Assembly: GCA_964016885.1 (NCBI GenBank)
Contig: OZ024753.1
Location: forward strand, 35,154,001-35,218,000
Origin: Eledone cirrhosa
Lineage: Eukaryota
Reading direction: 5' to 3'
DNA: 64,000 bases
A model generated the notes under the pieces. It did no database searches. It was not told the DNA's origin and saw only the letters and a list, made by a program, of their open reading frames with translations. The translations under genes were made by a program, and so were the position numbers. Positions 1 through 54,616 of the stretch are shown one piece after another. Numbering within the stretch: the stretch's first letter is position 1; each line of letters opens with the position of its first letter.

Positions 1-718
1 ATATATATATATATATACATATATGTATATATATAAAATACGGCGATAGCTTACATTTCTAATAATTTCAAATCCACTCGCTGTTTCAAAAATATTCTTA
101 CTTGACATTAGAGTCGCTAAGTTTATAGCTTCTAATTTGAATGGAAAAGGACGGGTGATGTGTTGGTGTAAATGGTAGCACAGTGGTCCGAATAACCAAA
201 AATGTGGGTTCAACTCCCATGTACGTCAATACTCATCTTTTTCCATTTCTCCGAGTGTTCTTAACCCCACTATCAGGCTAAATAATTTCTTTAATTTCTT
301 TAGTCAAAATACGGCGATATATACATACATATATATATATATATATACATATATATATACATATATATATATATACATATATATATGATGGCTGCCCCCT
401 CGTTATCGAGATATATATATATATATATATATATATGTATATCATCATCATCATCATCCCCGTTTTACGTCCGTTCTTCCACGCTAGCATGGGTATATAT
501 ATATAAATATATATATATACGTATATATATATAAATATATATATATACGTATAAATATATATATATACATATAAATATATATATATATACGTATATATAC
601 ATACACACATATATATATATATATATATATATATATATATAACGAAGGAAAAGTGGTAAGGAACCAGGTGGACCATAATGCACCAAAGTACTCAATACTT
701 AGGGTAGTAGAGTGGGTC

Positions 719-830
719 ATAGGAACAAGTAAGACCCCGACGGCTGAGCTCAAGCCGTTTCGACGGCTAATTCCAGAATTAGCCGTCGAAACGGCTTGAG
801 CTCAGCCGTCGGGGTCTTACTTGTTCCTAT
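719..830. repeat. Perfect inverted repeat, 55-bp arms with a 2-nt spacer, part of a 641-830 insert in (TA)n
   Basis: 719-773 is the exact reverse complement of 776-830. Confidence 0.95.
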
Positions 831-1985
831 ATATATATATATATATATATATATATACATATATATATATATATATATATATATATATATATATACATAT
901 ATATATATATATATATACATATATATATACATATATATATATATATATATATATACATATATATATATATATATATACATATATATATATATATATATAC
1001 ATATATATATACATATATATATATATATATATATATATATACATATATATATATATATATATATATATATATATACATATATATATACATATATATATAT
1101 ATATATATATATATATATATATACATATATATATACATATATATATATATATATATATTTATATATATATACATATATATACATATATATATATATACAT
1201 ATATATACATATATATATATACATATATATATATACATATATATATATACATATATATATATATACATATATATATACATATATATATATATACATATAT
1301 ATATACATATATATATACATATATATATATATATACATATATATATATATATACATATATATATATACACATATTTATACATACACATATATATACATAC
1401 ACATATATATATATATACATATATATATACGTATATACAATGCAATGAAATACCAATGACCGTTGGCAAATCACTGATGAGGGACTCATTTTATAACATG
1501 TTATCCATGTGCAACCATGCAGTATTCTTCTCCCCATTTTTTCACATATATATATATATATATATATACATACACACATATATATATATACATACACATA
1601 TATATATATATATATATACATACACACATATATATATATACATACACATATATATATATATATATACATACACATATATATATACATACACATATATATA
1701 TACATACATATATATATATATACATACATATATATATATATATATATATATATATATATATATATATATATATATACATATATATATATATACATACATA
1801 CATATATATATACATATATATATATATACATACATACATATATATATACATATATATATATATGTGTATATATATATATATATACATACATATATATATA
1901 CACATATATATATATATATATATATATATATATATATATATATATATATATATATATATGTATATATATATATACATATATATAG
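828..1985. repeat. Very long (TA)n/(TATACA) microsatellite field, interrupted at 1440-1545
   Basis: Direct inspection. Confidence 0.97.
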
Positions 1986-2464
1986 CAGGGAAAAGCAGAC
2001 GTAAAATGATGATATATATATTATGTATTTTATTATGATCAATGGCTTTCTTTATATGCATATTAATCATAATAAAACAAGATGCATTATTGCTATCATG
2101 AAACTGAACCTTATGAAAAAGATACAGTATTGTGCTGAGTAGTGATATGTTATAATGTAAAATACTTGGCCTCTCGTACAAACACTACAATACTCGAAGT
2201 AAACATGCTGACAAGCCAGAAGCTACAGTGTTTGGCAATCGAAATTAGATTGAGATAATATAGGGCTGGAGTGAACTCTCCTGTCTGGCCAAGCATGAGA
2301 TTACCTCTCTATTGCTGGTGCCACAATAAGATGCTCCCAGTAAACGTTGTAAGGTAGCACAATAAAATGCACCCATTACACCTTGTAGTGTCGGTACCAT
2401 GATAAAATGCACTTAGTCCACTCTTTAAGGAGTTAGTGCTGGTGTCATGAAAACCATTATCATG

Positions 2465-3645
2465 TTGGTGTCATGAAAAACATACCCATGCTGGTGTCAT
2501 GAAAAACAGAGCCATGCTGGTATCCTAAAAAACATACCCATGCTGGTATCATAAAAAACATACCCATGCTGGTATCATAAAAAAACATACCCATGCTGGT
2601 GTCATAAAAAACATACCCATGCTGGTATCCTAAAAAACATACCCATGCTGGTATCCTAAAAAACATACCCATGCTGGTATCCTAAAAAACATACCCATGC
2701 TGGTATCCTAAAAAACATACCCATGCCGGTGTCCTAAAAAACATACCCATGCTGGTATCCTAAAAAACATACCCATATGGTATCCTAAAAAACATACCCA
2801 TGCTGGTATCCTAAAAAACATACCCATATGGTATCCTAAAAAACATACCCATGCTGGTGTCCTAAAAAACATACCCATGCTGGTGTCATAAAAAACATAC
2901 CCATGCTGGTGTCATGAAAAATATACCCATGCTGGTGTCCTAAAAAACATACCCATGCTGATGACATAAAAAACATACCCATGCTGGTGTCATAAAAAAC
3001 ATAGCCATGCTGGTATCATAAAAAACATACCCATCCTGGTGTCCTAAAAAACATACCCATGCTGGTATCCTAAAAAACATAGCCATGCTGGTATCATAAA
3101 AAACATACCCATGCTGGTGTCCTAAAAAACATAGCCATGCTGGTATCATAAAAAACATACCCATGCTGGTGTCATAAAAAACATACCCATGCTGGTATCC
3201 TAAAAAACATACCCATGCTGGTGTCATAAAAAACATAACCATGCTGGTATCATAAAAACATACCCATGCTGGTATCCTAAAAAACATACCCATGCTGGTG
3301 TCATAAAAAACATACCCATGCTGGTATCCTAAAAAACATACCCATGCTGGTATCCTAAAAAACATACCCATGCTGGTGTCCTAAAAAACATACCCATGCT
3401 GGTGTCCTAAAAAACATACCCATGCTGGTGTCCTAAAAAACATACCCATGCTGGTGTCCTAAAAAACATACCCATGCTGGTATCCTAAAAAACATACCCA
3501 TGCTGGTATCCTAAAAAACATACCCATGCTGGTGTCATAAAAAAACATACCCATGCTGGTATCATAAAAAAACATACCCACGCTGGTATCCTAAAAAACA
3601 TACCCATGCTGGTGTCCTAAAAAACATACCCATGCTGGTGTCACA
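2465..3645. repeat. 26-bp minisatellite (aaaaaacatacccatgctggtRtcMt), about 45 copies, inside a decayed RTE-tail element (~2320-3830)
   Basis: Direct tandem repeats. The flanks carry the aaaatgcaccc...gtaaag units and an (ATG)n tail typical of the RTE 3' UTR. Confidence 0.92.
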
Positions 3646-4347
3646 AACAATGGCACCCAGCAGATTCTGAAAGGTGGTTGGCATCTATCAGTTGAAATTC
3701 TGCCAAGTATGGAATGTGGCAAGCAAGATTGGCCATTTTCTCCCATCTGGTCTCAGACTGTAACAACCTGTTCAACCCTTGCCAGTATGGAATGGGGGTG
3801 TAAAATGAAGATGAAGATGATGATGATGTTGTTTCTATTTAGATAGTTAAACATTTAACATTTACATTACTCTATATATACTATTGTATTTTTCTGGTAA
3901 ATGCTCTATCTCACATAATATTGAATCTATGAGATTTTGATATTATTTATTTTGAGAACAATACCTTAACATCAGTATGAGTGGCCAGTTACGACCATTT
4001 TGAACAGAAAGAGGCGAGAGAATTCTGGCCTGATATGGCCGGTTTATATGCCAAAGGGTTAAAGGTGGTGAATTGACAGTTGTTAGAGAGTAAAATAGAA
4101 TAGCTTGTGATATTTGGTCTGACTCACTGTGCTTTGAGTTCAAGTCTTGTCATGGTCAACTTTGTTTTTCAATCTTTTGGGGGTCAGTAAAATAGTACCA
4201 GTACAGGGCAGTGCATTGGAATAATTACTATGGTGTTAGATGAGATGCCTTGTAGTATTTGATCCAGCTCTTTATGTTCTCAGTTCAAATCCTGCTGTGG
4301 CCTGTATGTTATATATACTATATATATGTGAATGTGTGTGTGTGTAT

Positions 4348-52736: not shown

Positions 52737-53094
52737 GTAAGTTTAAATGAATTATTCTTTTTTTTTTCAAATTTCTTTCTCTACAAATCTATTTTTGTTG
52801 CACTAAAATGAAATGAAATACAAAAGAAATTATATAGAAAACTGTAATAATCCTTACAACTAGAAAAAACCTGTGAAGATCTTTTTTCCGTTATGGTCCA
52901 TCTGGTTCCTTACCACAATTTCTTTGTTTTATATATATATATATATATATATATATATATATATGAGTAATTTTGAAATGTTTTCATTGCTTGTTTATGG
53001 TTATAAGAATTTTATCAGTTATTATCAAAATAAAAGAAAATATTTTAATTTCTTGTTTGTTTATTTTTTTAATTTAATTAATTGTTTATTTCAG

Positions 53095-53253
53095 TGTTCT
53101 TGTTGCAAAGAATGATGTTGTGAAGATCTCAGATTTTGGAACCAGCCGAGAATGGAATGAGAAAAGTACAAAAATGTCCTTTGCAGGCACTGTCGCATGG
53201 ATGGCCCCTGAAGTTATAAGAAATGAGCCTTGTTCAGAGAAAGTTGATATTTG
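53095..53253 (+). CDS. MAP3K13: DLK/LZK kinase domain exon ([53 protein letters not shown])
   Basis: DFG motif, activation loop [17 protein letters not shown] diagnostic of DLK/LZK. GT-AG junctions with consistent phase 2. Confidence 0.97.
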
Positions 53254-53738
53254 GTTAGTATGGTTATTTTTAAAGTTGTAGAAATAGTTATAACGAAGAA
53301 GATATTTTAAATAGGCCACTTTACAACACTGATGATTAATTGGGCTTATTATCTATCTATCTACCTATCTATCTAGCTATTTCTATTAACTATCTATCTA
53401 CCACATTTATGTCTGTCTATCGGTCTATCTATCTGTCACTATCATCATCATCACCTTTAAACATCTATTTTCTTTCTATGTTTGCATGTCCTGCTCATAC
53501 ATTCCTTTTTTGGCTTGGTTTCTACGGATGGATGCCTTTCCTAATGCCAATGCCAACCACTTTACAGTGAAGATGAAGTGCATTTTACAGAGGGCACTAG
53601 GTGCTCTGTATATATATATATATATATATATATAAAGTTATGCATGTAAATGTGTGTGTGTGTAAAATATTTGTAGGAAAATATTTTAGAGTGAGACATT
53701 AACACAGTAATAATGTTTGATACATTTTTCTATTTTAG

Positions 53739-53897
53739 GTCATTTGGTGTTGTTTTATGGGAATTACTGACAGGAGAAATTCCCTATAGAGATGTTGATT
53801 CCTCTGCAATTATTTGGGGAGTCGGGAGTAATAGCTTGCATTTACCTGTGCCATCTACTTGTCCAGATGGTTTCCAACAACTACTGAAACAGTGTTG
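53739..53897 (+). CDS. MAP3K13: DLK/LZK kinase domain exon ([45 protein letters not shown]...)
   Basis: Near-identical to the vertebrate DLK/LZK sequence as I recall it. ttttag acceptor, TG|gtaagt donor. Confidence 0.97.
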
Positions 53898-54616
53898 GTA
53901 AGTTTCTTTTAACGATTTCTACATGTAATGAACCATTTTGAAACCTCCTTGTCCAAAACCACCTCTGTTTCTATGAAAGAAAACCACCCAGTTTAAAGTC
54001 TTTTTACTTAAATTAAAACCCTCCAACAATTTTATATACAAATATTTTGTTGTTACAAATACCTTCTTAACAAAATTATAATTTTTGTAAATCCTTTTCC
54101 AAATTCTTCATTAATTAATGGACATACAAAGTATTTAATTAGAAGTACAGTAATGAAAAGTTTAGTATTAATAAGAATACTAATGTGGTTTTTATCTAGC
54201 CACTGATGCTGTTGTTATCAATGCTTATTGTTCAGGGCTGCTGAAATGGAGTGGACCCTCCATTGGGATTTTACTATTTAATATACCAACTTTGTAACTA
54301 AACATTCATTGAGTACCACCCGGATCTGTGATCTTGTTGTATTCCCAGTCTCTATACTGCAAACACCTTATATATATAGTAACAATAATAAATGTGAAGA
54401 CTAAAATGCAAAGAGGGCTTGATAAGGATAAATATATATAAGAACCCTAGAGCAAATATTTATTAAAATAACAGATTAAAGTTTAAGCAAAGAATCGCTG
54501 CTTTCACCCTTAAAAGGATCTTCTGAATCTGTTATTTTAATAAATATATATGTATATTTATATTTGTACACACAGACACATATTATATATATATTTCTAA
54601 CTTCAATAAATTACAG

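Follow-up and report, generated by a model that had tools for sequence, protein, structure and literature searches.

The 64-kb window analyzed here, 64,000 nucleotides of Eledone cirrhosa contig OZ024753.1, contains seven palindromic inserts that lie between runs of (TA)n and are associated with hammerhead ribozymes. Judged from their sequence and that of their relatives, the inserts are almost certainly the 5'-truncated, head-to-head ends of Penelope-like elements (PLEs) and of one retrozyme. The best explanation of their structure, to which we give a probability of roughly 0.7, is twin target-primed reverse transcription from both cut ends of (TA)n, beginning at two fixed, hairpin-marked sites in the RNA.

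How the inverted pseudo-long terminal repeats (pLTRs) and the one-sided tail of PLEs arise has been debated ever since this class was recognized, and self-priming, nuclease trimming and internal initiation have all been proposed. The layout of the inserts is already known for PLEs; the additions made here are a counted rule, that one short end is joined to one long end, and a twin bulged hairpin behind these ends. Numbers can now be set on the alternatives, and a short RNA element is named that is testable in an existing in vitro system. An initial annotation of the window, which had described the inserts and offered twin priming and fold-back of the complementary DNA (cDNA) as their origin, overlooked both the twin hairpin and the fact that each family has fixed ends of its own.

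The seven inserts

Self-BLAST of the window and reading of the printed sequence showed an inverted repeat in each of the seven intervals, flanked by (TA)n runs and with one long and one short arm (Table 1). The plan originally described, (TA)n - long arm - inversion point - short arm - (TA)n, was confirmed in every case, as was the claim that the element-sense 3' ends of both arms point at the microsatellite. The inserts, designated by their start positions, belong to families A (641), G (11190), B (11646), C (17650), D (23626 and 54377) and E (47150). The inverted arm measured 53 bp in 641 (98% identity), about 33 bp in 11190 (82%), 197 bp in 11646 (98%), 189 bp in 17650 (98%), 38 bp in 23626 (89%) and 209-248 bp in 47150 (90-99%), which has a tandem monomer piece inside. 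The weakest insert, 54377, was missed by self-BLAST and has a 20-bp inverted arm 48 nt from its partner. The short side of 17650 consists of two tandem pieces, one of which (17928-18119) extends 77 nt into the tail while the other (18120-18167) stops at the short end.

Canonical hammerheads were located with a type I descriptor. A complete canonical core was present in each arm of 11646 and once in 47150, each arm of 17650 had a complete U4C variant, and 54377 had a near-complete U4A variant. The 641 insert retained the 3' half only; the core of family A is of the U3-A8 type, and longer copies have it in full. Only the final 16 nt remained in 23626. No hammerhead was found in 11190, and 11 of 30 relatives scanned in its family have one directly upstream. 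The initial claim that each insert contains a hammerhead, part of one, or homology to the sequence downstream of one was therefore borne out, 11190 being the last case. One further canonical match, at 48121, falls in a copy of family F. The joint of 641 was considered as a natural stem II and rejected; in longer family A copies stem II is different and of greater length, and joining is therefore the source of the central hairpin of 641.

Table 1. Positions of the insert arms and associated features in the window
Feature	Position	Strand	Remarks
Family A (Hydra-clade PLE) long arm	642-773	-	80-nt tail; long end at 642; parent open reading frame in L412, L416-L418
Family A short inverted arm	774-830	+	Fixed short end 827, plus TAT common to target
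Family A hammerhead 3' half (GAAA, stem III, GUC site, stem I 3' strand)	734-761	-	
Mirror of family A hammerhead 3' half	788-815	+	
Family A tail hairpin 1 (ACTC...TT-GAGT)	690-713	-	8 nt behind short end
Family G (Hydra-clade) long arm	11192-11308	-	Tail ~89 nt; without hammerhead
Family G short arm	11304-11355	+	Starts 1 nt past the family's hammerhead cut site
Family G tail hairpin 1	11250-11274	-	
Family B (Penelope/Poseidon-type PLE) short inverted arm	11646-11841	-	Canonical hammerhead 11766-11804
Family B long arm	11850-12090	+	~36-nt AC-rich tail; canonical hammerhead 11889-11927; without RYTC hairpin
Family C (Hydra-clade) long arm	17657-17922	-	~160-nt tail; U4C hammerhead 17858-17905; hairpin 1 17776-17809
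Family C short side	17928-18167	+	Two pieces; U4C hammerhead 17956-18003
Family D (Hydra-clade) long arm	23628-23756	-	~90-nt tail; last 16 nt of hammerhead 23738-23753; hairpin 1 23665-23710
Family D short arm	23756-23794	+	
Family E (tandem ~424-nt retrozyme) short-ended arm	47146-47626	-	>1 monomer; canonical hammerhead 47355-47397
Family E long-ended arm	47736-48007	+	60-nt tail; without RYTC hairpin
Family F (Hydra-clade, G relative), simple 5'-truncated copy	48077-48317	+	Intact canonical hammerhead 48121-48191; hairpin 1 48236-48260
Second family D long arm	54380-54530	-	U4A hammerhead 54481-54525, without most of stem I 5' strand
Second family D insert, 20-bp short arm	54526-54545	+	

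Families and their parent elements

Seven queries gave 106-2889 first-look candidates each, and the best 30 copies of each were inspected. In every query family both the long end and the short end, the latter on the inverted arm, were fixed while the joint varied, and many copies were without an inverted arm. The tails were about 35 to 165 nt long, depending on the family, and most inserts were stumps of 100-600 bp with no open reading frame (ORF). On sequence grounds, five inserts are assigned to four Hydra-clade families, one to a Penelope/Poseidon-type family and one to a tandem retrozyme. Six unrelated families had been reported initially; the number stood but the lack of relationship did not, as four of the six are Hydra-clade PLEs with a common tail hairpin.

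The parents of family B, in the sampled loci L214 and L216, matched the Pfam domains RVT_1 and GIY-YIG. The nuclease is C-terminal and preceded by CxxC, which would also fit Neptune, and the tail is AC-rich and 36 nt long. Copies of families A, C, D, F and G, which are inserted into (TA)n, led to ORFs homologous to a 743-aa reverse transcriptase (RT)-nuclease frame. No Pfam RT or GIY-YIG match was obtained in the six scanned ORF pieces related to this frame; across the related frames, YRDD, RWK-type, DKT and CxCX5C motifs were present. The family A ORF has RWR, DKT and YRDD (L412, L416-L418), the leaders of D and F run into RW-containing frames, a family C piece has RWR, and DKT occurs in related frames. 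The CxCX5C linker and the CxxC and CxH around the nuclease, with no CCHH, were recognized by eye in family C (L217) and in L223, L286 and L327; none of these motifs was seen in family A, the sequence of which stopped short of the C-terminus. One search match was named from Hydra vulgaris.

Parent ORFs were located in L217 for family C and in L223 and L110 for family D. A pLTR stood before and after the ORF in L214 and L216 (B), L217 and L219 (C), L110 (D), L173 and L227 (F) and L416-L417 (A), and the pLTRs of the family B parent were both direct and inverted. The pLTRs contain a type I hammerhead, with variant cores in three families (U3-A8 in A, U4C in C, U4A in D). The Penelope-like link suggested at the outset was thus upheld by the RT and nuclease ORFs of the parents, and the autonomous elements that were to be sought were found as RT plus GIY-YIG for B and as Hydra-type ORFs for A, C, D, F and G.

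Family E consists of tandem non-coding units of about 424 nt, each with a type I hammerhead (L228, L133, L270), and more than 20 monomers are present in L228. Two fixed ends were also seen in this family, along with a tail of 60 nt and inserts in head-to-head orientation. The retrozyme leaves the same two-ended footprint as the PLEs, which is direct structural support for its mobilization by a PLE protein.

Three side observations concern these families. The 743-aa Hydra-type frame in L327:1568-3796, a locus of the random sample, is open, which suggests recent PLE activity. In L408:150-870, and also in L410, family A forms 257-nt tandem units in which the start of the ORF jumps back to the usual 5' stop, a retrozyme-like array without the hammerhead 5' half. 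In L224:1040-2760, retrozyme E lies head to head with a piece of a Hydra-type ORF, with no TA run between them.

Two fixed ends and a variable joint

The 316 same-family head-to-head pairs, counted with overlapping loci kept and mostly from loci found with long-arm queries, comprised 193 short+long, 14 long+long and 1 short+short pairs and 108 pairs with an untyped end. One short and one long end were therefore combined in 193/208 fully typed pairs. The idea of a common integration route was borne out. The joints were distinct in 42/52 family A and 29/32 family D inserts, and many overlapped by a few bases.

The two arms of an insert agreed at 355/387 polymorphic cells (eight families within 196 deduplicated inserts), where independent templates would be expected to disagree at 151. 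At 44 sites the arms shared an allele found in no other insert. The background mismatch between arms was 353 of 11,982 positions, about 3%. Both arms therefore come from one source lineage.

The extents of the arms were compared in 172 inserts, 24 that reached the edge of the reference having been left out of the 196. The arm 5' ends lay within 20 nt of each other in 109, the long arm reached further 5' in 22, the short arm did so by more than 20 nt in 19, and the arms did not overlap at all in 22. In the unbiased sample described below the corresponding figures (n=27) were 14 matching, 3 with the long arm further, 3 with the short arm further and 7 non-overlapping. Each arm held sequence absent from the other in 41/172 inserts, some by 0.6-1.5 kb.

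These extents bear on the proposal that one cDNA or antisense template is copied back on itself to a fixed stop, with later central deletions. Such self-priming was put forward for the PLEs of Adineta from the palindromes at inverted junctions (PMC3846280), and it accounts for the matching 5' ends of most arms, the shared haplotypes, including the insert-private alleles, and the overlap at many joints. However, simple fold-back cannot give non-overlapping or short-arm-longer inserts without later deletion, and the excess was symmetric (19 short, 22 long). Fold-back also leaves unexplained why one fixed stop is used among several TA-like sites, why a matching hairpin lies behind both ends, and how an insert arose that joins two families, and both strands are extended in vitro by a PLE protein (PMC11167929). 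We consider fold-back unlikely. The 41/172 non-contained inserts favor twin priming, the other option of the initial annotation, and we regard it with good confidence as the origin of the inserts.

In the two-family insert (L052 = L215), the short end comes from F and the long end from D, and the joint is clean. It was the only clean case among ten candidate heterologous joints; L208 is cut by the locus edge, and for L224 the 3' end of the partner was not found. Arm disagreements in family B were likewise rejected as proof of two templates: the commonest site is an effect of query selection, the other allele being present in 97-99% of reads. Two-site switches remain in L034 and L043, which gene conversion could explain.

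Sharp 5' stops occurred before the short end, at about 50-60 nt in family A, 200 nt in B and 70 nt in D (for example L212:6556-6567). Three fall on initiator-like words, which occur 11-26 times per 700 nt, and these family-specific points could be transcription starts. At the other extremity, a TA-like match to the target of 3 nt or longer was found at 22/45 ends, compared with 4% expected. The word CTHA before the ends was rejected as a general feature, with 8 and 11 of 45 against 5/45 in the control.

A twin bulged hairpin behind the ends

When 233 asymmetric inverted repeats were clustered, 58 tail clusters resulted. In 22 of them (22/45 when 13 non-family or very short tails are subtracted), a bulged hairpin, hairpin 1, was present 5-16 nt behind the short end. 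By eye, many tails start with a TA-like run, and next to it the motif reads RYTC, then a short stem with its loop, then a bulge UH and lastly GARY (RYTC...UH-GARY). In the controls there was one occurrence on the reverse strand and one in the arm, and shuffled sequences had 0.4 on average. Nine clusters (2, 6, 10, 11, 15, 20, 21, 39 and 51) instead form a class with ACAC-rich tails of 35-60 nt without the bulged hairpin, which resemble the AC-rich stem-loop of Poseidon.

Since the motif was drawn from the tails of the genome itself, it was tested on 77 hold-out loci of Hydra-type ORFs from independent marine metagenome contigs. Of 44 hammerheads for which the downstream sequence was long enough, 24 were followed by the strict hairpin, which first occurred 36-56 nt past the cut; the controls gave 2 on the reverse strand and 8/467 ORF windows. 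Among 25 distinct leaders running into the ORF, 19 had two hairpins, five had one and one had none. The twin hairpins were 55-83 nt apart, and two hairpins occurred in only 2/625 ORF windows. When seven 3' copies were compared with their own leaders, five stopped 0-5 nt before hairpin 1 and one stopped 1 nt before hairpin 2.

In the genome, 54 long-ended copies, 29 of them retrozyme units, lacked a following microsatellite. The second hairpin stood 5-12 nt behind the long end in 7/54 (background 67/4366), in families A, D, F and one more; that of family G is degenerate. The spacing of the hairpins matched the length of the tail (78 vs 80 in A, 90 vs 91 in D and in F). Two-sided, compensatory changes were found at 4/6 pairs in 32 selected hairpins, RNAalifold recovered only the outer four pairs of the selected set, and the loops ranged from 3 to more than 60 nt.

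Rfam 15 gave no relevant match for the twin hairpin or leader in eight hold-out loci at E up to 1, and the twin hairpin was absent among the matches listed for the window (150 of 318). It was not found in the literature searched, supplementary figures and subscription papers lying outside the search. The words hairpin and stem-loop were absent from the PMC8557442 supplement file in a word search; in one curated Hydra consensus of that supplement, the hairpin can be recognized by eye downstream of its hammerhead.

The positions of the hairpins make it fairly probable that they are RNA start signals for reverse transcription. They might instead act on DNA as recognition sites of the GIY-YIG nuclease, which would trim the intermediate at two fixed points and so leave the one-sided tail. 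The tail has been attributed to nuclease resolution (PMC8557442), recognition by the D. virilis nuclease depends on the tail (cited in PMC11167929), both ends lie in TA-like sequence and wobble counts do not fix the strand. Against a DNA site, the long end is upstream of hairpin 2, which the inserted product lacks and only the read-through leader contains; stems that covary around loops of such variable length fit a folded single strand better than a duplex; and in vitro the tail is the gap between two RT starts (PMC11167929). Action on DNA is quite unlikely.

Genome-wide frequency and the role of the hammerhead

An unbiased sample of 100 evenly spaced 10-kb stretches (1.0 Mb of the 3.0-Gb host genome, from chromosomes C1-C9 and C28) contained 59 palindromes with spacers up to 60 nt. 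(TA)n abutted 49/59, compared with 4.7% expected, and was on exactly one side of 40, for 36 of which the next TA was found within 200 nt (background 21%). A link to a hammerhead, direct or by homology, was established for 26 of these 40, as against 20/400 random segments (Fisher p = 1e-19) and 49/400 TA-adjacent non-palindromic segments (p = 7e-13), and the predicted enrichment over controls was thus obtained. One family accounts for 10 of the 26; counted by family, 11/23 were linked. The 14 unlinked palindromes mostly belong to families with few relatives in the sampled data. Neighboring opposite-strand hammerheads were head-to-head in 8 cases and tail-to-tail in 2. No hammerhead was present among the 150 of 318 Rfam matches listed for the window, so a descriptor scan was needed; it gave 47 strict matches in 1 Mb and none in the reversed sequence.

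The window, with seven inserts in 64 kb, is mildly enriched relative to the 40/Mb of the sample (Poisson p 0.016), although the criteria differ. The integration route supplies about 40 palindromes/Mb in a large animal genome, where they may be a source of double-stranded RNA and of assembly trouble. The suggestion that perfect hairpins are seeded throughout the genome held as to their spread; perfect was an overstatement, since the arms in the sample were 80-100% identical.

Restriction site-associated DNA sequencing (RAD-seq) reads from three other samples showed that both fixed ends of family A (641) run into (TA)n, and opposite-strand joints were present. About 3000 reads per run end at the family A short end into TA, and additional ones end at the long end. 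When the reads were aligned to a long copy of this family, their depth rose about forty-fold at the usual 5' stop. Contigs of another read set show the family B short end. None of the reads examined spans a palindrome of the window.

The hammerhead lies 17-207 nt upstream of the start of the short arm and is often only partly included, and it is present in the inserts because of this position. The proposal that the joints mark its cut site was rejected, since 7/170 unbiased 5' ends fell at -2 to +5, no more than in neighboring bins; in 11190 and related copies the agreement with the cut site is subject to query bias. The hammerhead looks like a passenger in the integration step. Mutants of the hammerhead of a Poseidon PLE still insert in vitro (PMC11167929). 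The initial view that the route acts on ribozyme RNAs as such was not sustained; it acts instead on PLE RNAs, with retrozymes as hitch-hikers.

Proposed mechanism of insertion

We suggest that the element protein cuts both strands of (TA)n and that two reverse transcriptions then begin, one per cut end, at two fixed sites, likely on the same RNA. Each hairpin would be a putative binding site that sets one RT active site just 5' of it, and the two active sites probably belong to a dimer. The 2-5 nt of TA-like sequence at the start may pair with the primer. Both cDNAs would extend towards the 5' end of the RNA, usually halting within 50-200 nt at family-specific points, and the two could then be linked through microhomology or short templated patches. 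The non-overlapping class of inserts would result where a long-end cDNA stalled at hairpin 1. The hammerhead would lie on the copied path and take no part in this step. In the published in vitro system (Frangieh et al. 2024, PMC11167929), both strands are cut and extended by a Poseidon protein, and synthesis begins at two internal sites, one at each limit of the tail.

Several observations weigh against twin priming at hairpin-marked sites: 1) one hold-out 3' copy (L379) ends between the two hairpins, 2) the outer helix is favored in only 30/43 local folds, 3) the best fold of the family A leader is without hairpin 2 and not unusually stable (z -1.1), 4) the wobble counts mentioned above, 5 G-U vs 4 A-C at unselected hold-out pairs, leave the strand unfixed, 5) the motif was defined by eye on tails of the same genome, and the aligned set of 32 hairpins was picked for the motif, 6) the RYTC hairpin is missing from families B and E, each of which nevertheless has two fixed ends, and is therefore not universal, two of six families using other signals, 7) the biochemistry comes from a Poseidon protein, not a Hydra-clade one, 8) the matching arm 5' ends are also predicted by fold-back, 9) palindromes lose central sequence by deletion, as seen in L249, and 10) the start site described in PMC11167929 is not homologous to the cut DNA and is the same for both strands, whereas TA-like matches were found here.

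A stronger version, for which the odds are little better than even, holds that the hairpin pair is clade-wide and loads two RT active sites per RNA, that each integration is obligatorily twin-primed, that the spacing sets the tail, and that palindromes on the order of 100,000 in the genome result. If true, a telomerase-related enzyme would have in the two hairpins a priming signal that is portable and two-sited.

Copying of miniature inverted-repeat transposable elements (MITEs), or of other pre-formed palindromes, whole into TA sites would explain inserts that are short, have inverted ends, lie in TA context and reach a high copy number. The constant terminal inverted repeats and constant internal structure that are the hallmark of MITE and foldback elements were not seen among the copies. 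The joints are rebuilt in nearly every copy, the ends are asymmetric, copies of most families can be followed to RT-nuclease ORFs and many copies have no inverted arm, and this origin is highly improbable. An assembly or chimeric-read artifact, to which the lack of a spanning read might point, has a negligible chance of being correct, given the 3% difference between arms, the family-specific ends, their presence with opposite-strand joints in independent short reads, and the same ends in marine contigs of other origin.

Relation to known elements

L1 twin priming likewise uses a single RNA as template for both target ends, and its two cDNAs end up head to head; base pairing determines the second start, which therefore varies, and overlap between the arms is rare. 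The inserts differ in that both starts are fixed and the arms usually duplicate each other.

Endonuclease-positive (EN+) PLEs have an inverted 5'-truncated copy, a 30-40 bp tail at one end and a (TA)n bias (PMC8557442), and head-to-head palindromes were described together with the self-priming proposal (PMC3846280). The inserts are like EN+ PLE insertions in the palindrome at the joint, the one-sided tail, the (TA)n target and the hammerhead in the pLTR (Arkhipova et al. 2013, PMC3846280; Craig et al. 2021, PMC8557442). They are unlike them in tail length, about 35-165 nt, and in being mostly ORF-less stumps, and the one-short-one-long rule counted here goes beyond the published layout. RWK, DKT, CxCX5C, CxxC, CxH, a C-terminal nuclease, hammerheads and (TA)n are shared with the Hydra clade (PMC8557442); no mention of the twin bulged hairpin was found in the consulted passages on this clade, and families A, C and D have U3-A8, U4C and U4A cores, respectively. 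The U3-A8 core is a described PLE covariant, and opposite-strand hammerhead pairs have been reported (PMC4209133).

Family B resembles Poseidon PAc of Anolis in its AC-rich tail (PMC11167929). In that element hammerhead cleavage is dispensable and a dimer is predicted, in addition to the cutting and extension of both strands from two internal starts. Poseidon PAc has one AC-rich stem-loop and no target homology, whereas the Hydra-clade families studied here have two tandem RYTC hairpins and short TA-like matches. Non-LTR (long terminal repeat) retrozymes are tandem non-coding units of 150-450 nt, each with a type I hammerhead (Cervera and de la Pena 2020, PMC7229834; bioRxiv 10.64898/2026.07.22.740005). 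Family E conforms to this description in its 424-nt non-coding repeat and type I hammerhead per unit, and goes beyond it in its two fixed ends, 60-nt tail and head-to-head inserts.

Other features of the window

An eighth PLE-like end (11373-11632) lies between the 11190 and 11646 inserts, with a hammerhead-like core word at 11513, a bulged hairpin at 11559-11583 and an internal palindrome; opposite-strand joints of its family occur in raw reads. An older short+long insert at 45780-45915, of another hairpin-bearing family, has a decayed hammerhead (45848-45889) and a relative at 18916-18959. The region 4999-5247, probably another Hydra-type end, adjoins a TA run and contains a minus-strand hammerhead with one core change (5187-5238) beside a long-loop bulged hairpin (4999-5067).

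A family with a 57-nt tail occupies 35-319 and has a palindromic copy at 49344-49488; between two direct copies of this family is a tRNA-like stretch (157-228) that scores above the Rfam gathering score. Two copies of a further family with a 45-nt tail lie at 1442-1520 and 48364-48536, with core words at 1474 and 48495. The window also contains a SINE-like (short interspersed nuclear element) repeat at 10157-11166, in two inverted 335-bp copies (97%), each in TA and 340 bp apart, a palindrome with 65-bp arms and without TA flanks at 6280-6410, and minisatellites of 26, 99 and 112 bp at 2461-3639, 27608-28650 and 7307-7538.

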